Below the pieces are notes generated by a model. The model was not told the origin of the DNA. It saw nothing but the letters and a program-made list of their open reading frames with translations, and did no database searches. 64,000 bases of DNA from a virus (lineage: Duplodnaviria > Heunggongvirae > Uroviricota > Caudoviricetes): the IMG/VR virus record IMGVR_UViG_3300045988_149498, one strand, 5' to 3'. The position numbers were made by a program, and so were the translations under genes. Position 1 is the stretch's first letter. Each line of letters opens with the position of its first letter. Of the stretch, positions 10,254 through 57,303 are shown piece after piece.

Positions 10254-11438
10254 TCAAGCCTTAAGAGGCTTTGTGTATGTTCGTGTAATCCAACCAGTAA
10301 TAAACTCATCCCCTGATTTAACCTGCACGTAAAGCCATTGACGATCTTTCTTATCTAAAATAGCAACAATTGTGTTTTTGCCAATGCATTCAATCACTTC
10401 ACTATTTAAAGAAGGACTGACATGTAATCTTACGTTATCACCAGTTATAAACCTAAAACCATTGAGATCTTCCCACTTAATTTCTGTGTTTTCTTTAATT
10501 AATTTTTGTTTTGATATTGGTGCATCCTCATATAGGGATACAGAATATGATTCTGTCTTGTGTATTTGCGATAAGATTTGTTCTTTTGCATAATCAGCAA
10601 TAGCGCCAAGCACCACTTCTGTTAAAAGCCACATAATAATAAACTGAAGCGGGTGAGGGAGCGACTTAAATGAATCAATGAACGTCGAACTGGATTTATT
10701 TAATCCTTTGTCTTGAACATCACTTTCGTTGTGAGATGTTTCAATAGCACCTTCGACATAAGCCTGTGCAATTGATGAAAGACTTTGCTCCATTATTTGA
10801 TGTAATGAAGCCTTTTGCGCTAGGGTATATTGTTTTAATGATTCTTTTATTTCATTGTTTAAATCTATCTTATGACTTACATTTTGTCGCAATTCATTAA
10901 GTATTGCTTGCATGTTATTTAAACCAGCTTGCTTATTAAGCATCTCGAACTGGTTTCGTAACGGCATAGCAATTTCTGCCTGCTTCCTTAGCATTTGAAT
11001 GTATTTATTTGCATCATGCGGGGGATAAACCTTGGCCTGTTTCTGTAGAATTTCAAGAAATTCACGATGCTTGCTATTTATTCTTCTCAAGCTCGTCATG
11101 TTCGCAAGCTGTTTTTTAACAGAATCACTAAGTAACGATTGCAAATTCAATCTTGCTATTTGTTCTTGAGCTAGCCGCCCTATTCTTAACTGTTCTTGCA
11201 AGTTTGCCATATGTTCTCTATACGATGGAATGATTGCGTTTTTTTGCAGTTCTGCCAACTGTCTAACCAAATTATTAGAAGCATATTCTGATTTTAATAA
11301 ATCACTTGCCGATGTATATCCTGGCATTTTGATTTTACTTAAATTATCACGCCAGGTAATATTTGAATCTCTATTATAGAGATCGCTTACTGAGCCAAGT
11401 GCAAGTTTTTTAATATCCTTCACTTTATTCACCGTCAT
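10254..11438 (-). CDS. Low-GC island gene A: helical protein with one predicted transmembrane segment and C-terminal SH3b-like domain, 394 aa
   Basis: AT-rich coding sequence; long N-terminal helical region, hydrophobic segment LQFIIMWLLTEVVLGAIA, C-terminal SH3-like region; start overlaps the stop of gene B by 14 nt. Confidence 0.5.
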   Translation of the reverse strand: MTVNKVKDIKKLALGSVSDLYNRDSNITWRDNLSKIKMPGYTSASDLLKSEYASNNLVRQLAELQKNAIIPSYREHMANLQEQLRIGRLAQEQIARLNLQSLLSDSVKKQLANMTSLRRINSKHREFLEILQKQAKVYPPHDANKYIQMLRKQAEIAMPLRNQFEMLNKQAGLNNMQAILNELRQNVSHKIDLNNEIKESLKQYTLAQKASLHQIMEQSLSSIAQAYVEGAIETSHNESDVQDKGLNKSSSTFIDSFKSLPHPLQFIIMWLLTEVVLGAIADYAKEQILSQIHKTESYSVSLYEDAPISKQKLIKENTEIKWEDLNGFRFITGDNVRLHVSPSLNSEVIECIGKNTIVAILDKKDRQWLYVQVKSGDEFITGWITRTYTKPLKA

Positions 11439-11931
11439 CTTGCTTTAAACATCCATCATTTTTAGCTTCCTTGTAAATACTTGAAATTCCATCAAGAGAG
11501 AATGATGTAATTCGACGCGATCCGATATATACATCCATGTTTTTTTCTTTTGTGGCTGACGCTGACTTCCAAAAAGAATACCATTCCCTACGATTTGGAG
11601 CAGTGTTTTGCGTACCAATATTAAAGCTATCCGAACCAACAATTAAGGTAATTACATCAGCTTTACGAGAAATTGTGTCGCGTGTAGAAAAATCAGCATT
11701 CTCTTTCCCTCCACTTACATACAAATTTCTTCCAGCTATATGATCTTCGGAACCTTCCCTTGCTCCAGCATCACAAGAAAAGTTAATTGTATAACCATCG
11801 TCATTGGTTGCAGAGATTTCTCTCCACCCTTGCTCACCTCCTACCGTCCAAACGGTAGAACCTGCCATTGCTGATAATGGCAGAAAAGAGGACATTAATA
11901 AAAAGCTATACAATGACTTATATAATTTCAT
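11425..11931 (-). CDS. Low-GC island gene B: secreted (signal-peptide) protein, 168 aa
   Basis: N-terminus MKLYKSLYSFLLMSSFLPLSAMA is a typical Sec signal peptide; AAGGA Shine-Dalgarno site upstream. Confidence 0.5.
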   Translation of the reverse strand: MKLYKSLYSFLLMSSFLPLSAMAGSTVWTVGGEQGWREISATNDDGYTINFSCDAGAREGSEDHIAGRNLYVSGGKENADFSTRDTISRKADVITLIVGSDSFNIGTQNTAPNRREWYSFWKSASATKEKNMDVYIGSRRITSFSLDGISSIYKEAKNDGCLKQDDGE

Positions 11932-15194: not shown

Positions 15195-16040
15195 ATGCTG
15201 GCTAAAGTCACTTTCCTGAGCTGTATAACGATGAGCGATTTTACTTTTTCTGGCTATGAATTGGCCTGCTTTGTAACACACTCCGGTCTATCCCGTAGCG
15301 CCGGGCATATCCTGTCGCAATGTGCAAATCTCGCGGCAACAACCAGTGAATACTTCATTCACAAGCCTCACCGCCTGATCGCGGCAGAAACTGGTTATAG
15401 CCAATCAACCGTCGTTCGTGCATTCCGTGAAGCTGTAAACAAAGGAATTCTGTCTGTAGAGATTGTTATCGGCGATCACCGTGAACGTCGCGCTAACCTG
15501 TACCGGTTTACACCATCCTTTTTGGCCTTCGCACAACAAGCCAAAAATGCGCTGATTGAAAGCAAATTAAAGATCTCTTCAGCGGCAACCAAGGTTAAAG
15601 CTGTTCTCGCTAAGACATTGGCTTTATTTAATTTTTTATCCACACCCCCATGTCAAAATGATACCCCCTCCCCCTGTCAGGATGACGTGGCAATAAAGAA
15701 TAAGAAGTCACAAGTTAAAAAAACAAAAAGATCAGTTTCCGGCGGTGCCGGAACGACCAGACTCAAAAAATTGACTTCATGGATCGCTGAGGCAAAAGCA
15801 AAGGCTGACAATCTGCGGTTATCCAAAAAACGCGCTCAAAAACATGAGTTCAAGCAGAAGGTAGAGGCGGCAGCGCGGAAATATGCTTACCTGAAGAACA
15901 AGCGTTCTCCTGATATTGGCGGGGTATCAAACTTCGATAATCTGCCGCATTGCATGACGGTAAACGAAGCTCTTAATGCGGTTTTAGCCAAAAATAAAGA
16001 TAACGAACAATGGGGTATACCGGCAGGATTCAGAGGGTGA
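15195..16040 (+). CDS. repL: RepL lytic replication initiator, 281 aa
   Basis: 281-aa ORF downstream of kilA under a C1 operator; RepL-family features; the lytic origin is expected within the gene. Confidence 0.7.
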   Translation: MLAKVTFLSCITMSDFTFSGYELACFVTHSGLSRSAGHILSQCANLAATTSEYFIHKPHRLIAAETGYSQSTVVRAFREAVNKGILSVEIVIGDHRERRANLYRFTPSFLAFAQQAKNALIESKLKISSAATKVKAVLAKTLALFNFLSTPPCQNDTPSPCQDDVAIKNKKSQVKKTKRSVSGGAGTTRLKKLTSWIAEAKAKADNLRLSKKRAQKHEFKQKVEAAARKYAYLKNKRSPDIGGVSNFDNLPHCMTVNEALNAVLAKNKDNEQWGIPAGFRG

Positions 16041-16090
16041 TAGATTGCTCTAATCTGGAGTCACCTGGCGTTTTCAGTTTGAGGTCGGAG

Positions 16091-16336
16091 ATGCAATCTG
16101 ATTTTTTACAGTTAGCGATCGCTTTTGCAGGATATGTTTGTATTGGCTTCTGTGTATACATGTTCAGCCGAAAAATGCTTGTCGATATCGACCGCAAAGA
16201 ACAAGCAGAGGAGATCTTAGTATGGATTTTCTTTGGCGCGGTCTGGCCATTAGGGATCATGTTTGCTGCAACATTTCTTCTGATGTGGATATTCACCCTT
16301 CCAGGTGATTTCTATAGAAAAAAAGCCAGACATTGA
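16091..16336 (+). CDS. Small two-helix membrane protein, ~81 aa
   Basis: Start refined to an ATG preceded by GAGGTCGGAG; two hydrophobic helices (LAIAFAGYVCIGFCVYMF, GAVWPLGIMFAATFLLMWIF). Confidence 0.4.
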   Translation: MQSDFLQLAIAFAGYVCIGFCVYMFSRKMLVDIDRKEQAEEILVWIFFGAVWPLGIMFAATFLLMWIFTLPGDFYRKKARH

Positions 16337-16439
16337 TACAATCGTTGCGGGTGCTTGAGGCTATCTGCTTCAGGCATGACCCGAAAAGCAGATAGAAGAA
16401 AGCCCCAGATAACATTACGCGTCCTGCAAGACGCTTAAC

Positions 16440-16520
16440 ATTAATCTGAGGCCATATCTATGCTTAGCATACGTAGATTAGCCTCTTACCGACCAAAAGG
16501 TCAAGGAGAAGCAGGCTATG
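16440..16520 (-). ncRNA. Sok-like antisense RNA (position inferred, not resolved)
   Basis: Inferred from hok/mok architecture only; promoter not confidently identified. Confidence 0.2.
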
Positions 16521-16666
16521 AAGCAGCAAAAAGCGATGTTAATCGCTCTGATCGTCATCTGTTTAACCGTCATTGTGACGGCACTGGTAACGAGGAAAGA
16601 CCTCTGCGAGGTACGAATCCGAACCGGCCAGACGGAGGTCACTGTCTTCACAGCCTACGAATCTGA
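16460..16666 (+). CDS. mok-like overlapping reading frame of the hok locus
   Basis: 68-codon ORF beginning upstream of, and overlapping, the hok frame, as in hok/mok loci. Confidence 0.35.
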   Translation: MLSIRRLASYRPKGQGEAGYEAAKSDVNRSDRHLFNRHCDGTGNEERPLRGTNPNRPDGGHCLHSLRI

Positions 16667-16673
16667 AAGGTAA
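16518..16673 (+). CDS. hok: Hok/Gef-family type I toxin, 51 aa
   Basis: MKQQKAMLIALIVICLTVIVTALVTRKDLCEVRIRTGQTEVTVFTAYESER aligns with Hok (LTRKSLCEIRYRDG...EVAAFMAYES); AAGGAG Shine-Dalgarno site; 3' hairpin GGCGGGGA-gtga-TCCCCGCC at 16681-16700. Confidence 0.8.
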   Translation: MKQQKAMLIALIVICLTVIVTALVTRKDLCEVRIRTGQTEVTVFTAYESER

Positions 16674-17027
16674 GAGACCTGGCGGGGAGTGATCCCCGCC
16701 ACTCTTCGTGTGTCTGGTAACCTCAATGCACCCTTTTCTCCCCAATAGTGTAAAACACAATGAAGTAGAAGGAGTTATTTCACATCATGCAAAGATTCAG
16801 ACCATATCTCCCAATAGCCTTCGCGACATGATGACTTTCAGAAATATCTAGCTGTTAACAAAATTCCATACTTGCTTTGCTAATACCACCTAGATTATAT
16901 ATGGAAAAATACACCTAAAACTTAAACAAATTATATCCACAACAAACATCCATCTATTAGGATTAAAATTAATTTAATAATAAATAATACAACACCGGTT
17001 CATTTTCTAACAAACCGGTGGGCACCA

Positions 17028-18020
17028 TTATTGGAATAACTTACTGATTACATTAAAAACATTAAGGGCGTTACTTGCCACACTAGACATCTTGGCTGAA
17101 TTTTTTTCGATTGAGTCAAGAACACTTTCGACTTCCGATAAAGTTCTTCTGCTATCTGCATCTTTTCCTGAGTCTATCGCATCTTTAATTGCAGATATAG
17201 CAGACTCTAAATTCTCCTTAAACTCACCTGTCGTCTCATCCTTCAAGAGAAGTTCTAACTCTTGTTTAAGTTTTTCCAATGATGCTCTTTTCTCATCAGT
17301 TTTACTAATCTTCCCTGAATAACTGACACAAACACATTCTCTTTTATTGCAGACAGGACAACCATTTAGATAATAACTTTCAAACGCCTCGCCAAGATCA
17401 TCATCTTTAAAAATAATCCCCCATAAAGAAAACAACCAAGCATATATATCAGCACACTCTTCATGAAGATTTTCTTTGTTGTAATTTTTATCTTCAATTG
17501 ATTTAGCATAAGCCTCTTGCAACTCACCCAACTCTTCGAATAACCTGGATGAATGATAAAACCCACCAAAAGTAGACCAAATGGTTCTATTCGACGGATA
17601 GATATCATTAATCATTCGTGGCGCATAAGGCGGAAATTGCATAGGTTTAATAGCGTTATATTTATTGAAAAGCTCATCTTTAATTCCTTTTGCGCTTCTT
17701 ATTTTCTCTGGCTTTCTGTGTGTTTGAGAACAGGAACAAGGCGCCCCTAAGCAATAAGGACAGCAACTAGGGAATTTTTTATAAAATGCTTCCTGTGGTT
17801 GTATTTCAAGTTTATCACAGATTGCAAAAAGCCAAGACAATGCTTCTATATAGGTATTTTTTAATAATTCTTTATCCTGATTACCATCACGAATAAACTC
17901 ACGTGTTAAATAAGCTGTTTTCCTTGTCAGATAAGAGTACATATACTCAAATGATTTTTCTTCATTTTTTTTGCTGTAAATACCTACAATAATATTGCTC
18001 ATATCATTGATACGTAACAT
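17028..18020 (-). CDS. Tandem MazG-like (all-alpha NTP pyrophosphohydrolase-like) protein with two CxxC-type zinc ribbons and acidic coiled-coil tail, ~330 aa
   Basis: Low-GC gene. Start refined to ATG preceded by AAGAGGAA. Motifs FEELGELQEAYA and HEECADIYAWL, plus a degenerate first copy; CPYCLGAPCSC and CPVCNKRECVC; terminator hairpin at ~17000-17030. Confidence 0.55.
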   Translation of the reverse strand: MLRINDMSNIIVGIYSKKNEEKSFEYMYSYLTRKTAYLTREFIRDGNQDKELLKNTYIEALSWLFAICDKLEIQPQEAFYKKFPSCCPYCLGAPCSCSQTHRKPEKIRSAKGIKDELFNKYNAIKPMQFPPYAPRMINDIYPSNRTIWSTFGGFYHSSRLFEELGELQEAYAKSIEDKNYNKENLHEECADIYAWLFSLWGIIFKDDDLGEAFESYYLNGCPVCNKRECVCVSYSGKISKTDEKRASLEKLKQELELLLKDETTGEFKENLESAISAIKDAIDSGKDADSRRTLSEVESVLDSIEKNSAKMSSVASNALNVFNVISKLFQ

Positions 18021-51575: not shown

Positions 51576-52324
51576 GCGAAATTAATTACCAGGCACTGCG
51601 TGAGGCGGCGGAACGTGCAATTCCAGCAATGGAACGCCTGTTAATGTTGCCAGCTGATGATGATTTGTTAAGTGAACAGGAACTTAAAGATTACGGTGTG
51701 GATATTGATGCGCTCAACGCCTTCAAATTTCTGACCGGACCAGAAACCGTGCTGGCGCTGCTGGATGAACGGGAAAGAAACCAGCAATACATAAAACGCC
51801 GCGATCAGGAGAACGAGGATATTGCGCTAACGGTAGGGAAGCTGAGAGTTGAGCTTGAGGAAGTAAAACAACACGCTGAAGAATTATCCGAAACCAAGGC
51901 TGTTCGTAACCAATGGCGGCCAGATATTTGCCCAATAACCGGACGTGCATTTTTCATGTGGATTGAGCATCCAACATTGGGAAATGTGCCGACATATGGT
52001 GGCCCATTAGATAGTTACACCATTCCAACAAAGGACGGTGACGGTGAGTTTTCATGTGAGCGTTACGATCATGATTTTGGCGGTTGGGTAGAAAGCGAAT
52101 GTCTTGGGTTATATCTGATTGATGATAGAGAACAATGCAGGGTCTACGAACTGGAGGAACGCGTTAAGGAACTGGATGCTCGGGAAATATCGCTCCCGGA
52201 ACGTAGCAGCATGCTTCATCGAACAGATTTTCACGATGATTACCAAACGGTAATGGCATACAAAGTTTCTGAAGTCATCGCTGCAATCCGCGCCGCAGGC
52301 ATTCGCATCAAAGGAGGTGAGTAA
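51572..52324 (+). CDS. Ead/Ea22-like paralogue, 250 aa
   Basis: N-terminus NYQALREAAERAIP; coiled-coil middle region. Confidence 0.45.
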   Translation: MSEINYQALREAAERAIPAMERLLMLPADDDLLSEQELKDYGVDIDALNAFKFLTGPETVLALLDERERNQQYIKRRDQENEDIALTVGKLRVELEEVKQHAEELSETKAVRNQWRPDICPITGRAFFMWIEHPTLGNVPTYGGPLDSYTIPTKDGDGEFSCERYDHDFGGWVESECLGLYLIDDREQCRVYELEERVKELDAREISLPERSSMLHRTDFHDDYQTVMAYKVSEVIAAIRAAGIRIKGGE

Positions 52325-52496
52325 TGCGTGTGGCATGTATCGGCTTGTTACCGTACCCGACTCGTTTTTGGGCTTCTGCGCTAATTGCAAAGCCGTATGT
52401 CCTGATGGCTGACAACATCATCCCGGCACCAAAGCGCCGCCATACCGGTATTGCAGCGGCACGACGAGCAGCAAAGAGACGCAGGAGAGCAAAGCG

Positions 52497-52691
52497 ATGA
52501 AAAACCGTAAAGCAAAGATTCTGTTAGTTCGTAGAAACGCTCCTGGCGTCTGGCAGTGGGTGAGACTCAGCAACCGACGGATGGGGTTGATGAAATATTA
52601 CGGGATGATGGATTGTGGTTTTTGCAAAAAGCCCAGCGCGGCGCAAAACCGCTGGAAAAACCACTGTTATCTGCGCACTAAAGGAGAGTGA
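52497..52691 (+). CDS. Small basic protein, 64 aa
   Basis: ORF only; Lys/Arg-rich with CGFC motif. Confidence 0.25.
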   Translation: MKNRKAKILLVRRNAPGVWQWVRLSNRRMGLMKYYGMMDCGFCKKPSAAQNRWKNHCYLRTKGE

Positions 52692-52692
52692 G

Positions 52693-53208
52693 ATGGCGTT
52701 AACACACCGCGAACTCTGTCAGATTGCGTACAAGTTCCTTAAGCGCAACGGGTTCAAGGTTTGCTTTCATGACCGCTTTATAGCTGTAACCAGCACCGGA
52801 GAACAGCCAGATGCTATGGGATTCAGAAGTTCAGCATCATGCTTGATAGAGGCGAAGTGTTCTCGTGCTGACTTGTTGGCAGATAGAAAAAAGCGTTTCC
52901 GTAAAAATCCGTCTCTTGGAATGGGCGACTGGCGATTCTTTATTAGTGAGCCGGGAATTATTTCAATTGAGGATTTACCACCTGGCTGGGGATTACTTCA
53001 CGTTGTTAACGGAAGAGTACGGAAAGTACATGGGTGGCCCAAGGGTAATTGCTGTTGGGGTAATCCTGACGATAAGCCATTTACTGGAAATAAGCAGGTT
53101 GAATGCGATTACATGTTATCTGCATTAAGGCGCATGGAGTTGAGAGGGCACCTTAATGAAATATATGACGGTGTAATTGTTAATAAGAAAGAAGGAAACG
53201 CGGCATGA
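52693..53208 (+). CDS. Putative PD-(D/E)xK nuclease (MmcB-like), ~171 aa
   Basis: Start refined to ATG after AAGGAGAG; GEQPDAMGF...CLIEAKCSRAD pattern. Tentative. Confidence 0.4.
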   Translation: MALTHRELCQIAYKFLKRNGFKVCFHDRFIAVTSTGEQPDAMGFRSSASCLIEAKCSRADLLADRKKRFRKNPSLGMGDWRFFISEPGIISIEDLPPGWGLLHVVNGRVRKVHGWPKGNCCWGNPDDKPFTGNKQVECDYMLSALRRMELRGHLNEIYDGVIVNKKEGNAA

Positions 53209-53669
53209 TCACTATTACCAATAAGAAACAGTATCCCAGCGAGCAATATCTTAATGAGCTGATCACCAACATAGAGTTTGCTGCAAGGGCACCAGTTGAA
53301 GTCGTGAGAGCAATGGCAGCAGAGCTACAGAAGCGGCGCGAAGCTGATAGTGCAGAACCAGTTGCTTATATTTTCAAACATCCGGCCGGGAAATTATTCT
53401 GGGCTTTAACGGATGAAAGCAATAAAGAGCAAGCGGACGTTATTCCTGTTTATGCTGCCGCGCCTGCGTCGGTTGTGCCGGATAATGCATCAGAGCCTCT
53501 TGCTTATGCTTACAAAGAGCTTACGCCTGAGATTATGCGCAACCATTTAGCTGTATTCGAGCGATATGGAATAGCCCCAAACGATAGCACTACCACAATT
53601 CAGGCACTGCGAATCGCGCTGGATGGTATAGAGCGGAGCGACGCCATGCTTCAGGGTAAAGGAGGGTGA
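53205..53669 (+). CDS. Hypothetical protein, 154 aa
   Basis: ORF coupled to neighbours. Confidence 0.35.
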   Translation: MITITNKKQYPSEQYLNELITNIEFAARAPVEVVRAMAAELQKRREADSAEPVAYIFKHPAGKLFWALTDESNKEQADVIPVYAAAPASVVPDNASEPLAYAYKELTPEIMRNHLAVFERYGIAPNDSTTTIQALRIALDGIERSDAMLQGKGG

Positions 53670-53670
53670 T

Positions 53671-53880
53671 ATGGCTATTGCCGCAAGTTACACAATGCAT
53701 CTCTATTGTGACTGCCGCCAGTGTACGGAAGGTGTATATCCAGTGCCAGACTTCGGTGAGTATATCGGTACGTCATGGGCTGGCTGTGCAAAAGAGGCGC
53801 GCAAGGATGGCTGGCGAATAAGCAAAGACAAAACGCGTGCTTTTGCGCCCGGGCATAAAGTTTTGAGGATTAACAAATGA
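53671..53880 (+). CDS. Small Cys-rich protein, 69 aa
   Basis: CDCRQC...C motif. Confidence 0.3.
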   Translation: MAIAASYTMHLYCDCRQCTEGVYPVPDFGEYIGTSWAGCAKEARKDGWRISKDKTRAFAPGHKVLRINK

Positions 53881-54545
53881 CCACTATTACCAAAGAGCGA
53901 CTGCTGACAATCAAGCAGTGGCGCGAAACATACGGACCGGGTAGCAACGTTGTACTGCCAGCAGAAGAAGCGGAAGAACTGGCACGGATTGCACTGGCAT
54001 CGCTGGAAGCAGATCCCGTTAAACGAGTTAACTCAGATCAGATGCACCGAGTCTGCTTAGAAGCTAATCGCTATTTAGATAAATATGACGCGATGGCGAA
54101 AGAGGTAAATAAGTTGCTTGGACGCATCGCCCCGCCAGCGCCGGTATTGCCTCATGAGTGGAGGCTGTCAAATGCACAGGCGTTTATCGAGCGATACTCT
54201 CCGCCTTCAGTGGAAGAAGCCGCACTATTTGCCTGGAACTCCTGCCGCGCCGCCATGCTTCATGGTGCCAAACCTGTAAGCCAGACTTACAAGTTGAACG
54301 AGCTGGCTGGCAACTATCCGGTAACTCCGGATGGTTGGATAAGCTGTAGTGAGCGAATGCCGGATAGCAAAACAGCCGTTCTTGTTGCCAGGGAGTTTGA
54401 CAGGAAAGGTGACTGGCGAATGAAATGGGCGACTTACATCCCCGGGCATCCTGACGCTAATGATGGGTGGATAATTCCTGGTGCGTCGTGGAAACCGTCA
54501 CACTGGATGCCGCTACCAGAACCGCCGCAGGAGGTGAATCAATGA
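53877..54545 (+). CDS. DUF551-like prophage protein, 222 aa
   Basis: C-terminal WISCSERMPD...GDW...WMPLPEPP signature typical of DUF551. Confidence 0.5.
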   Translation: MTTITKERLLTIKQWRETYGPGSNVVLPAEEAEELARIALASLEADPVKRVNSDQMHRVCLEANRYLDKYDAMAKEVNKLLGRIAPPAPVLPHEWRLSNAQAFIERYSPPSVEEAALFAWNSCRAAMLHGAKPVSQTYKLNELAGNYPVTPDGWISCSERMPDSKTAVLVAREFDRKGDWRMKWATYIPGHPDANDGWIIPGASWKPSHWMPLPEPPQEVNQ

Positions 54546-54609
54546 GCTGGCCTGAAGCATTCACCACGGTAGGAATTGTGATGGCGGCAGCACTGGGTTT
54601 GTATTCAAT

Positions 54610-54861
54610 TTGTCGCTGGTGGTAACGATGGGAAAAATAACTTTTGTAGTCGAATTTGAGGATGGTAAAGAGCCACCTGTTAGCGCCAATCTTGATGTTG
54701 CTGGTGGCAGGCTTGTTTCGGTTCTATTTGGTGACTACCGAGATGATTTCTTCCAACCAGAAGAAGTTGATGTGGTGCGAGAGGCATTAAACGAGTTAAG
54801 TGTTGATAACGATGATGCTCATGCGGAAATCATCCAAAAAATGGAACTGCTAACTCACTAA
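54610..54861 (+). CDS. Hypothetical acidic protein, 83 aa
   Basis: ORF only. Confidence 0.3.
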   Translation: MSLVVTMGKITFVVEFEDGKEPPVSANLDVAGGRLVSVLFGDYRDDFFQPEEVDVVREALNELSVDNDDAHAEIIQKMELLTH

Positions 54862-54909
54862 ATTATCAATTATGGTGCTATCACCTACGACACCGAGAGA
54901 AAATTTATA

Positions 54910-55032
54910 ATGTCAAAAGTAAATGTTTTGATTTTTTCAGTAATTGTAGGTTTTGGTTTTTCTGCTGGAGTGCATATTTATATTACGTGGGAAAAAATCA
55001 TCAACTACGTATGGAGTTGTTTTATTAAGTGA
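54910..55032 (+). CDS. Small hydrophobic membrane peptide, ~40 aa (not in the supplied ORF track)
   Basis: ATG with GAGAGA upstream; MSKVNVLIFSVIVGFGFSAGVHIYITWEKIINYVWSCFIK; AT-rich context. Confidence 0.35.
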   Translation: MSKVNVLIFSVIVGFGFSAGVHIYITWEKIINYVWSCFIK

Positions 55033-55039
55033 GGTAAGT

Positions 55040-55333
55040 ATGTGGAGAGGTAATAGTCATGGCAAAAGCCAGATGATACTTACCGAATATCAGTTTGACC
55101 ATAAAACCAATAAATCACGTTCAGTATATTTGCTTCGGCACAATAGCCGCGTAAGGAATACCGTGCTGGAGCAAAATCTGACTGTTGAAATGGATAATTA
55201 CGGGGGCTTCAAGCCAACAATTTCGCTTGATGATTTTCCTCGTGGTTTAAGCGAAAGAGAAGCAATGCTGAAATTAGCAGAATGGCTACAAAGATTAAGC
55301 ATTGCTATTGAAGATAACTGGTCTGAACCTTAA
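55040..55333 (+). CDS. Hypothetical protein, ~97 aa
   Basis: Start refined to ATG after GAGGTAAGT; AT-rich. Confidence 0.4.
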   Translation: MWRGNSHGKSQMILTEYQFDHKTNKSRSVYLLRHNSRVRNTVLEQNLTVEMDNYGGFKPTISLDDFPRGLSEREAMLKLAEWLQRLSIAIEDNWSEP

Positions 55334-55339
55334 ATTTAT

Positions 55340-55714
55340 ATGATGACACTAAAACATTTTCTTGACCGCCCATTATGGGCGGCAGCCGCAGGCTATGACT
55401 TTAATTATATGGATTGCATGTCTTATACCGCCAATGCATACGACCATTCCTTCAGTCTGCTGTTTAATTCTTTAAGAATATTGCCGCAAACAGAAGTTGG
55501 AGAGCTTCATTTATGGCTATTGGGCTTTATCGCGGCTGGAGTTGGTATTGCTGTATGGCCTTTTATTTTCTGGCTGGTGGCTGTTGTAGTGTGGTTTAAG
55601 TGCAAGACGTACCGGAAAAAGTATTTCTTAGGTGATGGAATGACTGATATTGCCAAAATGAACATTGAAAAATGGACTAAGGAATGTGAAAAGAAATGGC
55701 GCAAAAAGAAATGA
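55340..55714 (+). CDS. Two-helix membrane protein with Lys-rich C-terminus, 124 aa
   Basis: Hydrophobic segment LWLLGFIAAGVGIAVWPFIFWLVAVVVWF; C-terminal KKWRKKK. Confidence 0.4.
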   Translation: MMTLKHFLDRPLWAAAAGYDFNYMDCMSYTANAYDHSFSLLFNSLRILPQTEVGELHLWLLGFIAAGVGIAVWPFIFWLVAVVVWFKCKTYRKKYFLGDGMTDIAKMNIEKWTKECEKKWRKKK

Positions 55715-56376
55715 CTACTCTAACGACAGCATACTTACAGCAATTGGTATTTTTTGCAGGCGAGGCTACTTGTCATCCTGACGCAAACTATTTATTGGAA
55801 TTTGAGAGGTTAGCGTCACCCGGTATCGTTCTGGAACTGGCCCAACAGGTGCTGGCCTTGAGACAAAAAGAGCAACATGAAAGTAATACGTGTAGATTGA
55901 ATTTTGAGCAGTGGCTGGAACAGCAACGCGGAAAAATCGATGTGGACTGTGGTTGTGTGTCTACTGAAACATTCATGCACTGGCTGCGGGTAGCTTACGA
56001 GGCTGGCAACTATCCGGATATTCCTGATAGTTCGGTGCCAGGGCCAGGAAAGGGCATCACCGGTGAACGTATCCGCATTAAACCGCATGTTTATCGCGAA
56101 CTGGTTAACCGTCTCCACGATACAGCGATCAAGTGTGCGGGCACCCAGCAATTACGAGAAAGAATTAGCCGTGTTTTGGGCGACGTTATTACGCCAGATC
56201 ATCATAAACAAGCCGAGAAAAGTGGCTTGGAAAGGTGTCACCTTGAGGCGGCATTAAACATTAAGCCGGGGCATACGCTTGGCATTATTGATGCACTATT
56301 GGTTCATAAGATGGCCAGGGCTTTATTGCCGCTGGTGGCTGAAAAGCATGAGGCGGACCATGCCAACGAAAGCTGA
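55696..56376 (+). CDS. Hypothetical protein, 226 aa
   Basis: ORF overlapping neighbours. Confidence 0.4.
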   Translation: MAQKEMTTLTTAYLQQLVFFAGEATCHPDANYLLEFERLASPGIVLELAQQVLALRQKEQHESNTCRLNFEQWLEQQRGKIDVDCGCVSTETFMHWLRVAYEAGNYPDIPDSSVPGPGKGITGERIRIKPHVYRELVNRLHDTAIKCAGTQQLRERISRVLGDVITPDHHKQAEKSGLERCHLEAALNIKPGHTLGIIDALLVHKMARALLPLVAEKHEADHANES

Positions 56377-56644
56377 GTTACAGGCGCGCATAGAGATTCT
56401 TGAAAAAGAGAATGCGAGTCTAAAAGGAATGCTGGCGCGGGCGGAAAGGGAATTATCAGGCAAATTATTGCCAGAAGAGCTGCCACCAGCAGATATACCT
56501 GATCGAGTGTCCTGGTGGATGAAGTATTTCCGTGCACCGTGGGAGGCGTTTTGGTGCTACGACCATCGCAGATGGTGTGATGAGCTTGATAGCAGTTTCC
56601 CCTATTTTGCGGAAGGGAACTCTTGCCCTGAATGTAGGAGTTAA
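56360..56644 (+). CDS. Hypothetical coiled-coil/Cys protein, ~94 aa
   Basis: Start refined to ATG after GAGG, overlapping the upstream stop; C-terminal CPEC motif. Confidence 0.35.
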   Translation: MPTKAELQARIEILEKENASLKGMLARAERELSGKLLPEELPPADIPDRVSWWMKYFRAPWEAFWCYDHRRWCDELDSSFPYFAEGNSCPECRS

Positions 56645-56876
56645 TGATGACCGGCGAGCTTTATTTTAAAATGTTTCTCGTTAGGAGTGCAGTCAAAATT
56701 TTTGGGCAATACAGGATCGAGAGGAATGCGATTAGGCATAGCTAATTCCTTATTAACTGATTGGCAACGAGGTTACGCTGATCCGTTGGTGATGAATAGT
56801 AGCAAAGCGCACAAAATCATCTGCGGTGGTTGATGTACATAACGCGTTTGCACCAAAGGTGTCTCTTTAATGTATA

Positions 56877-56913: not shown

Positions 56914-57303
56914 ATGGGCTTCCCTTCTCCTGCGGCGGATTATGTTGAAAGCAGAATTTCTCTTGATCAGCAACTAATCAGGCATCCATCAGCGACATAC
57001 TTCATGCGGGCGGCAGACAGCCATCACCGTGAGGGAATATTGCAGGGTGCTTTTCTGGTGGTTGATTCTTCGCTTACTCCAGTTGATGGTTCGCTGCTTG
57101 TCTGCGCTATGGAGGGTGAATATCGCATAAAGAGATACCGAAAGTATCCGCGCCAGCACCTGGAGGATTTAAGCACCGGGAAGAAAGAGGCGTTACCAGT
57201 AGATGACGATGGATGCACGGGCAGTAATGCTGTTTTTGGTGTGATCACTCATGTCATCAATGATGCCCGAAGTGGGGAGTTTGATGATTGTCCGGTTATT
57301 TAA
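56914..57303 (+). CDS. humD: HumD, UmuD-like S24 peptidase-family SOS mutagenesis protein, 129 aa
   Basis: N-terminus MGFPSPAADYVE and LexA/UmuD-like catalytic core; LexA box upstream. Confidence 0.85.
   Translation: MGFPSPAADYVESRISLDQQLIRHPSATYFMRAADSHHREGILQGAFLVVDSSLTPVDGSLLVCAMEGEYRIKRYRKYPRQHLEDLSTGKKEALPVDDDGCTGSNAVFGVITHVINDARSGEFDDCPVI

Follow-up and report, generated by a model that had tools for sequence, protein, structure and literature searches.

Small genes in a variable region of a P1-like phage-plasmid as a probable early accessory module of a C1-repressed operon

An AT-rich stretch of a P1-like element, situated between a DUF551 gene and humD, carries three small genes, encoding a hydrophobic peptide of 40 residues (p40), a soluble protein of 97 residues (p97) and a membrane protein of 124 residues (p124). 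What might such genes do for the element? The original prediction treated them as one cassette and suggested type I toxins, holin-like proteins or exclusion/abortive-infection factors. According to our analysis, they probably constitute an early accessory module of an operon repressed by C1. A specific membrane mechanism of host takeover or exclusion, on the other hand, is possible but rather doubtful.

The window (the whole stretch of 64,000 nucleotides that was analyzed) is matched at 100% by the IncY plasmid pRHB09-C18_2 and at 97–99% by phages SJ46 and vB_EcoM-813R1; judged by its sequence, it is a P1-like phage-plasmid. When compared by blastn with reference P1 (NC_005856), it is collinear up to 49989 and again from 55995; the P1-type backbone is also collinear from 56665 onward, with humD, phd and doc downstream. 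The stretch with p40, p97 and p124 lies entirely inside the ~6-kb block in between, and the same DNA is present in 309 of 5,426 complete E. coli genomes (5.7%). The features are:

49100–49116, plus strand: C1 repressor operator at the operon head, equivalent to P1 Op88/OpmgT (ATTGCTCTAATAAATCT, one mismatch to the consensus)
49990–55994, plus strand: ~6-kb block of lambdoid ea-type genes (ead/Ea22-like, DUF551, others), not in reference P1 by blastn; gene identities from the annotation of the identical plasmid CP057937
54542–54625, plus strand: p27, an unannotated hydrophobic ORF of 27 residues within a 52-residue GTG ORF, with an ATGA overlap with the DUF551 stop codon
54628–54861, plus strand: p77, an acidic soluble protein of 77 residues, upstream partner of p40 in an optional module (phrog_3876, E=4.7e-53)
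54910–55032, plus strand: p40, a predicted single-span small membrane protein of 40 residues (MSKVNVLIFSVIVGFGFSAGVHIYITWEKIINYVWSCFIK); ORF with 29% GC and a weak Shine-Dalgarno site
55040–55333, plus strand: p97, a soluble protein of 97 residues, with a four-strand beta-meander and a highly conserved C-terminal helix; ORF with a good Shine-Dalgarno site (GAGG)
55340–55714, plus strand: p124, a membrane protein of 124 residues with a basic C-terminal flank and tail; ORF beginning 6 nt past the p97 stop
55696–56376, plus strand: p226, the downstream Ea22-like gene; ORF matching phrog_21459 and phrog_60
56360–56644: p94, ORF

The location of the block is a familiar one. In P1-like phage-plasmids, eight regions are hypervariable and low in GC, and one of them, region 8, is the pmgT-to-humD interval, made up of pmgT-pmgU-pmgV-upfMNO-hot-lxr-humD (PMC9603915). 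Since the hypervariable region had already been described, the stretch amounts to ordinary accessory cargo rather than a new type of system. The view of it as variable cargo was thus right, as the comparison with P1 bears out (the block is absent from P1, and hot and lxr are missing), and had been published previously (PMC9603915). The gene hot had been reported absent from where the P1 map would place it; it is in fact nowhere in the 64-kb window, only a remnant of 28 codons is left of lxr, and hot is carried by 41 of 77 related loci. In a CRISPRi survey of P1, where different genes occupy the interval, all tested genes from pap to humD (upfM was not among them) were non-essential (PMC10695390).

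The low GC content of the stretch is borne out by quantitative analysis. The GC content of 54862–55714 is 38.0%, compared with a mean of 47.4% for the window, which puts this segment at the 4th percentile of 853-nt windows (SD 3.7% GC). By gene, the values are 29% for p40, 40% for p97, 40.5% for p124 and 52.6% for the flanking DUF551 gene. Three comparable low-GC dips are found in the window, 54862–55714 being one of them.

Are the three ORFs genuine genes? Because they match phrog_5525, phrog_1258 and phrog_2638 over their full length, we take p40, p97 and p124 to be genuine conserved protein-coding genes. The point matters most for p40, which had been claimed at 54910–55032 despite its absence from the ORF track and is indeed present there. 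According to one alternative, p40 (and p27) is no more than an ORF occurring by chance in AT-rich spacer DNA, leaving p97 and p124 as the only genes. PGAP does not call p40, which is left out of the annotation both by RefSeq/PGAP and in the identical GenBank plasmid (SJ46 has it annotated as J46_0090); its Shine-Dalgarno site is weak (−3.0 kcal/mol), its pN/pS of 0.52 comes from 15 variable sites and is only moderately below 1, it has only 5 clusters in an index of 5.8 billion proteins, and some gene callers stretch p97 upstream over p40, yielding versions of 125–140 residues. However, p40 matches a PHROG family of 40-residue proteins from residue 1 to 40 of 40 (phrog_5525, E=2.4e-22). Its homologues in phages EC.W1-9 and phiv142-3 are exactly 40 residues long, with 48% amino acid and 56% nucleotide identity, and in DNA of 48–50% GC their 40 codons keep both the hydrophobic pattern and the motif GFG..AG..YI.WE..IN..WS. 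Moreover, the ORF is intact in 57 of 60 related loci, and p97 starts with MWRG, which is conserved as a start in distant homologues, so the upstream-extended versions of p97 are spurious. The chance-ORF explanation is therefore very unlikely. The original prediction had made its 40-residue ORF stand or fall with conservation, and the full-length PHROG match together with 40-residue homologues in unrelated phages of different GC content means that it stands. With an uncharged stretch at residues 4–27 and a Kyte-Doolittle maximum of 1.96 over 19 residues, p40 is predicted to be a single-span small protein of the inner membrane.

The soluble nature of p97 had been anticipated correctly; the gene starts at 55040 rather than at 55041. 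The protein matches phrog_1258 over residues 1–97 of 97 (E=1.1e-49), and its C-terminal helix, which hardly varies and in which R73, E74, W82, E91, D92 and W94 are invariant, has the look of a surface for binding proteins. A profile search against the sequences of solved structures gave no match for p97. For p124, a hydrophobic core and a basic tail are borne out but the two helices are not. The hydrophobic uncharged segment spans residues 56–86 around a central W-P and is followed by a flank with a net charge of +5. Throughout the family, there is a single uncharged segment with a central aromatic-Pro, and its length (23–36 residues) is too short for two spans. Judged by its sequence features, p124 thus spans the membrane once; its N-terminal domain is conserved (motif TLKHFxDxPxWAAAAGYDFNxxDC), and its basic tail would be cytoplasmic according to the positive-inside (charge-bias) rule. 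Its match to phrog_2638 covers residues 1–122 against profile positions 1–120 of 120 (E=3.2e-63), and a set of 1.84 billion proteins yields no more than 23 cluster representatives for it. A profile search of solved-structure sequences gave nothing significant for p124 (one match at E=0.46), and the AlphaFold model is one long helix of low confidence (pLDDT 58), which made it unusable for a fold search. A plausible Shine-Dalgarno site had been proposed for each of the three genes. The one of p97 is good (GAGG, −8.1 kcal/mol) and that of p40 is weak, whereas p124 has none (−2.2 kcal/mol). Since just 6 nt separate the p97 stop from the p124 start, translation of p124 is probably coupled to that of p97.

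Describing the stretch as lying between the DUF551 gene and humD passed over four more ORFs, namely p27, p77, p226 and p94. The Shine-Dalgarno site of p27 (CAGGAGGTG, −11.6 kcal/mol, spacing 5) is the strongest in the region, and the ORF is intact in all 44 loci that carry it. Against PHROGs it has no match, and against Pfam one sub-threshold match (DUF7512, E=0.007); p27 is probably another single-span small inner-membrane protein. Values of pN/pS for p27, p77, p40 and p124 range from 0.15 to 0.52, with p77 at 0.15. The start of p226 overlaps the tail of p124 by 19 nt, and the C-terminal half of p226 is the counterpart of P1 pmgU (tblastn of PmgU against 56035–56337, 93% identity in the same frame). 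Scans of p40, p97, p124, p77, p226 and p94 against Pfam, NCBIfam and PADLOC returned nothing significant, and scanning the p124 and p97 alignments against Pfam one member at a time produced only scattered single-member noise; the DUF551 protein did match DUF551 (Pfam).

Rather than one cassette, these genes make up two recombining modules, (p27)-p77-p40 and p97-p124. Among the 73 informative P1-like loci, 43 are complete, 13 are without p27 and 17 contain p97-p124 alone. In these loci, p77 always accompanies p40 (56 of 73) and p124 adjoins p97 in all 73. The modules are missing from some sister elements and from reference P1. We also weighed whether p97 and p124 form an obligate pair resembling a toxin-antitoxin system, and dropped the idea on the ground that, outside P1-like elements, either gene is found without its partner.

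When would these genes be expressed? They belong to a co-directional operon of about 49.3–56.6 kb, packed tightly as illustrated by the ATGA overlap at p27, the 6-nt gap between p97 and p124 and the 19-nt overlap between p124 and p226. At its head, a sigma-70-like promoter found by a promoter scan (49072–49101) overlaps the C1 operator, and the P1 annotation has OpmgT and P1/P2pmgT at the homologous position. The window contains 12 C1 operator sites, compared with 0.27 expected. We detected no plus-strand promoter-like sites from 53372 to 55802, no terminators inside the block and no P1 late-promoter boxes within 49–57 kb. The homology of operator and promoter to those of P1, together with the lack of internal promoters, suggests that transcription starts early at the C1-controlled promoter and reads on through ~6 kb, although AT-rich DNA could harbor weak internal promoters.

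The contexts of homologues agree on an early setting. Homologues of p40, p97 and p124 reside in early (ea/nin/replication) operons of lambdoid, N15-like, Uetakevirus-like, Yersinia and Proteus phages, those in Yersinia and Proteus phages adjoining exonuclease, helicase and primase genes. Those of p40 follow ea22/Eaa in Uetakevirus-like phages, where they overlap genes on both sides. The p97 homologue of mEp235 is in the nin region, between ninF and a gp66-like gene, and that of N15 is gp44. When genome contigs were scanned with the p124 alignment, a single locus was found; p124 homologues also occur among Ea22-like and DUF551 genes upstream of an integrase in two lambdoid prophage contigs. The occurrence of p97 and p124 homologues in early replication regions of Proteus Gorganvirus phages and one Yersinia phage points to a role in lytic growth, not in the lysogen.

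These observations bear directly on the functions originally suggested. A type I toxin, its translation curbed by a cis-encoded antisense RNA and serving plasmid maintenance, would be a hydrophobic peptide of under about 60 residues, and p40 is such a peptide, with a weak Shine-Dalgarno site, in a plasmid-prophage that already uses post-segregational killing (phd-doc is 2 kb downstream). Yet neither strand contains an Rfam family (E≤1), neither folds better than shuffled sequence (z=−0.21 for sense, −0.75 for antisense), and promoter-like sites number 7 compared with 12.2 expected from shuffles. An antisense or overlapping regulatory RNA with promoter and terminator did not emerge in silico: there are only two 9-of-12 antisense promoter-like sites and no antisense terminator. 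Nor does p40 have an independent locus with its own promoter and structured 5′ UTR. The 48-nt spacer at its locus has no promoter-like sites, the gene sits inside a co-directional operon and overlaps both neighbors in other phages, and 17 of 73 sister elements dispense with it. The toxin suggestion is hardly credible in light of these results. Much the same holds for p124, with or without p40, as a holin or antiholin-like lysis protein, a role for which we see almost no chance. As in many holins, there is a transmembrane segment (at least one is needed) followed by a highly basic C-terminal tail. However, the sole PHROG match of p124 is to a family of unknown function, with no lysis-category family at E≤0.01, and Pfam holin families did not match either. 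In no context examined, be it the window or homologous loci, does an endolysin or other lysis gene adjoin p124; all these contexts are early rather than late, no late-promoter box is nearby, and mEp235 has its holin, lysin and Rz genes in a separate cluster. P1-type phages reportedly have their own lysis genes, lydA/lydB/lyz, elsewhere.

Exclusion deserves more attention. Small membrane proteins that exclude superinfecting phages include HK97 gp15, T4 Imm and P1 Sim, and P22 SieA is also of the exclusion type. By analogy, the lysogen might produce p40 and/or p124, which would then either stop DNA from entering or kill cells that become infected. Small single-span membrane proteins encoded at a variable, AT-rich site of the moron kind are what one might expect of such factors, and the presence of the module in over one-twentieth of complete E. 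coli genomes would fit a selectable benefit. Nevertheless, PADLOC-DB has no match at E≤0.1 to p40, p97, p124, p77, p226 or p94, and about a quarter of otherwise identical elements lack p40. Promoters of their own do not exceed chance, and the location of the operon behind a C1 operator argues against expression in the lysogen, as does the lytic role indicated by the Gorganvirus and Yersinia phage homologues. The suggestion is therefore mostly unsupported, and prophage-expressed exclusion or abortive infection seems unlikely.

The early accessory module accommodates these observations best. On this reading, the stretch belongs to a long operon behind the C1-repressed pmgT promoter, loaded with ~6 kb of accessory genes typical of early (ea, nin, replication) regions of temperate phages. 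Such genes would be silent in the lysogen, transcribed early upon C1 inactivation or infection, and dispensable for plaque formation. From the inner membrane, p40 and p124 might modify the host, while p97 might bind a conserved host protein, the outcome being a takeover of the host, a shield for the infected cell against superinfection or a disturbance of some host function associated with the membrane. It is genomic context and protein architecture that suggest such a host-directed role. A bolder version is that p40 and p124 (with p27) belong to undescribed families of phage effectors, small and membrane-bound, and that p97 is an inhibitor with a new small fold lacking any relative of solved structure, all made early in P1-type lytic development and blocking a conserved enterobacterial target in the inner membrane or cytoplasm. 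The target could be the route by which competing phages bring in their DNA, a factor of cell division or of the envelope, or a defence system bound to the membrane. We regard this version as speculative and on the improbable side.

The significance of our results lies mostly in annotation, as these hypothetical proteins are already in PHROGs and in hundreds of sequenced plasmids. Across over 300 E. coli plasmids, PGAP systematically misses the 40-residue gene, and probably the 27-residue gene too. The region has been documented as a hot spot of recombination in P1-like phage-plasmids, elements of interest as carriers of ESBL genes, and p40, p97 and p124 are tractable for small-protein screens (toxicity, phage exclusion, anti-defence). 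A clear host target for one of the proteins would be a modest addition to phage-host biology and not a new principle; if the effector proposal proved true, the P1 toolkit would gain new host-takeover or anti-defence proteins.

Overall, likeness to known systems is of varying depth. With type I toxins, p40 shares its short hydrophobic character but not an antisense RNA signal, a locus of its own or a family match; with holins, p124 shares the transmembrane segment and basic tail but not the endolysin neighbor, the late promoter or a family match. HK97 gp15, T4 Imm and P1 Sim are alike in size class, membrane anchoring and accessory status, but sequence or profile similarity to them was not detected, and there is no sign of lysogen expression. 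The three PHROG families match over the full length (E = 2e-22 to 3e-63), but all are of unknown function and provide a name without a mechanism. Hypervariable region 8 of P1-like phage-plasmids is the same low-GC interval, from pap and the Op88 operator to humD-phd-doc, and its gene content is likewise swapped among sister elements, with hot and lxr variably present and, in our 73 loci, three architectures. Its variability has been reported, but the p40, p97 and p124 ORFs were not characterized there (PMC9603915), and neither that paper nor the other literature searched assigns them a function. The remaining parallel is with the non-essential delayed-early genes of lambdoid phages (ea22, ead and DUF551 of the ea/b region, and nin). 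The window has ead/Ea22-like and DUF551 neighbors and overlapping starts and stops, and homologues of p40, p97 and p124 are found in ea, nin or int-proximal early operons, including early-left or nin operons of temperate phages, as befits lambdoid-type early accessory genes. No named ea or nin family includes any of the three, and here the setting is a P1-type myovirus plasmid-prophage under C1 control instead of lambda-type pL/pR.

The AT-rich stretch at 54862-55714, with its three small ORFs named by product length in residues (p40, p97 and p124), is an ordinary one, made up of catalogued hypothetical genes inside a published hypervariable region. As a description, the original prediction was accurate save for its claims about Shine-Dalgarno sites and a two-helix protein. 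The window represents a P1-like phage-plasmid. Identity over the region is 100% with IncY plasmid pRHB09-C18_2 (CP057937) and 97-99% with phages SJ46 and vB_EcoM-813R1; 310 plasmids in PLSDB also match, most of them of ~95 kb, non-mobilisable and from E. coli and Salmonella. A search of 5,426 complete E. coli genomes placed the 841 bases of the original prediction (54880-55720) in 309, at 318 places, 314 of them plasmid-borne. The reported dip in base composition is real: GC is 38.0% against 47.4% for the window (4th percentile among 853-nt windows), and 29% in p40. The window has three dips of this kind; the other two (~9500-11500 and ~16000-17500) have equal or lower GC, the lowest in the window being 33%, and may be other variable regions of P1-like elements. 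ORF reading gave a closely packed plus-strand series at 54.5-56.7 kb, listed here with its flanking genes:

53877-54545, plus strand: DUF551 protein
54542-54625, plus strand: p27, hydrophobic 27-residue ORF, ATGA overlap with the DUF551 stop
54628-54861, plus strand: p77
between p77 and p40: 48-nt spacer
54910-55032, plus strand: p40
55040-55333, plus strand: p97 (start originally placed, approximately, one base off)
55340-55714, plus strand: p124
55696-56376, plus strand: p226
56360-56644, plus strand: p94
56914-57303, after p94: humD

p40, p97 and p124 are genuine genes. Annotated in SJ46 and passed over by PGAP, p40 matches phrog_5525 over 40/40 positions (E=2.4e-22), and its ORF is unbroken in 57 of 60 P1-like loci. 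In phage phiv142-3 (Uetakevirus) and the closely similar EC.W1-9, homologues of exactly 40 codons follow ea22/Eaa; these are 56% (nucleotide) and about 48% (amino acid) identical to p40, have a GC content of 48-50%, and retain the hydrophobic core and the motif GFG..AG..YI.WE..IN..WS. The full-length match, the equal length at another GC and the intact loci together bear out the original claim of a real 40-residue ORF. With only 15 variable sites to go on, its pN/pS comes to 0.52; the replacements are conservative. Its single uncharged stretch spans residues 4-27. The unannotated p27 (MSWPEAFTTVGIVMAAALGLYSICRWW) has the strongest Shine-Dalgarno of the region (CAGGAGGTG, -11.6 kcal/mol), is unbroken in all 44 related loci carrying it, and accompanies p77 even where the upstream DUF551 gene differs.

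Full-length matches were also found for p97 (phrog_1258, E=1.1e-49) and p124 (phrog_2638, E=3.2e-63); none of the three families has a known function, and Pfam, NCBIfam and PADLOC gave no match to any of the three proteins. The 128 homologues of p97 across Enterobacterales include N15 gp44, phiKO2 gp43 and mEp235_051, the last in a nin region. Since the MWRG start is conserved, we rejected longer gene calls of 125-140 residues as spurious. The structure of p97, predicted with confidence (pLDDT 85.5), is a four-strand meander followed by a C-terminal helix, where the majority of invariant residues sit; among solved structures and BFVD models it had no significant relative bar one true homologue. 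The p124 family is very small (1.84 billion proteins yielded 23 cluster representatives), with every member 114-131 residues long and the N-terminal motif TLKHFxDxPxWAAAAGYDFNxxDC in common. In its one uncharged stretch (31 residues here, 23-36 over the family) a central aromatic-Pro is conserved; the flank on the N-terminal side is acidic and that on the C-terminal side strongly basic, with a net charge of +3 to +6. These features argue for a single transmembrane segment, probably kinked and with a cytoplasmic basic tail, instead of the two helices originally proposed; AlphaFold also gives one long helix, but at pLDDT of only 58.

Some labels and ORFs nearby deserve comment. The 'conotoxin' annotation of a p124 homologue in Yersinia phage vB_YenS-P840 (2501-2860) looks like a spurious automatic label. 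Likewise, 'antitoxin PHD' on p94 in CP057937 is probably a mis-annotation: p94 matches phrog_3797, of unknown function, a Pfam search gave weak coiled-coil matches and none to Phd/YefM, and the real phd-doc pair sits downstream of humD. A 197-residue ORF at 52615-53208 (plus strand; about 172 residues from a probable internal ATG near 52690) has a motif, DAMGF...LIEAKCSRAD, that by eye resembles a PD-(D/E)xK nuclease. The gene table of CP057937 lists no CDS for this ORF, which may be a pseudogene or have been left out of the PLSDB table.

At 49100-49116 lies a C1 operator that departs from the consensus at one position and overlaps a promoter-like site; P1 has OpmgT/Op88 and the P1/P2pmgT promoters at this very place. 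Between the operator and 56.6 kb, all genes annotated in the identical plasmid and all long ORFs read as genes are on the plus strand. Neither a convincing terminator nor a P1 late-promoter box turned up, and a promoter scan found no plus-strand promoter-like site at 53372-55802. Instead of a plausible Shine-Dalgarno on each ORF, we found good ones only for p27 and p97 (-8.1 kcal/mol), a weak one for p40 (-3.0) and none for p124, which starts 6 nt past the p97 stop. From this arrangement we infer that the genes are co-transcribed from a C1-repressed promoter and partly coupled in translation. They would thus be silent in the lysogen and switched on early in lytic growth.

Homologues elsewhere occupy early regions in every context: ea beside integrase, nin, and, in a Yersinia phage and Proteus Gorganvirus phages, the neighbourhood of exonuclease, helicase and primase genes. 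We consider early-expressed accessory genes the probable general reading. That p40, p124 and perhaps p27 sit in the inner membrane and target the host from there, with p97 acting through a protein-binding helix, is our best guess at a mechanism, drawn from context and architecture, and in this specific form rather doubtful. Exclusion or abortive-infection factors made in the lysogen are improbable: PADLOC returned nothing, and the regulatory setting speaks against expression in that state. The type I toxin suggested originally finds neither an antisense RNA signal nor an independent locus; there was no Rfam match on either strand, folding was no stronger than in shuffled sequence (z = -0.21 and -0.75), promoter-like sites were fewer than in shuffles, and no antisense terminator was found. 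A holin fares no better: none of the families matched, endolysin genes were absent beside it in all contexts, and the setting is early, not late.

The presumed early accessory genes form a modular set. Among 73 informative P1-like loci, p27-p77-p40-p97-p124 is complete in 43, 13 are without p27, and 17 have only p97-p124; these two are adjacent in every one. Outside P1-like elements either one can be found alone, or the two lie kilobases from each other, so we rejected an obligate pair. Three sister elements (IMG/VR loci L075, L077 and L078) carry an insertion of 230-240 nt between p97 and p124, otherwise always 6 nt apart, and a more divergent p124 (85-94% identity).

Comparison with reference P1 (NC_005856) bears out the variable-cargo reading. 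Collinearity runs to 49989, inside pmgT; ~6 kb (49990-55994) are missing from P1, whose similarity returns briefly at 55995-56341 (pmgT C-terminus and pmgU). The window then lacks the pmgU tail, pmgV, upfM/N/O, hot and most of lxr before collinearity resumes at 56665, ahead of humD-phd-doc. The absence of hot was rightly noted: tblastn with the P1 and RCS47 Hot proteins found no match anywhere in the window, while 41 of 77 sister loci have the gene. A remnant of lxr, the first 28 codons of the P1 gene, lies within a 32-residue ORF (56641-56739, minus strand) adjoining the humD regulatory region. The pmgT-to-humD interval is one of eight hypervariable regions in P1-like phage-plasmids, whose variable regions are associated with low G+C (PMC9603915), and in P1 CRISPRi all tested genes from pap to humD, a set without upfM, were non-essential (PMC10695390). 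We also compared window 49295-49990 and 55994-56341 with P1 8489-9558. The window's ASCH-like first gene corresponds at 99% to PmgT residues 1-232, the counterpart of residues 232-308 lies at 55994-56224 in a frame differing from that of the resident p226, and P1 pmgU (GTG start) is an in-frame C-terminal remnant of p226. Given this two-part match, pmgT of reference P1 looks like a deletion scar, and it is apparently the P1 reference from which the ~6-kb block was lost, with two genes fused out of frame.
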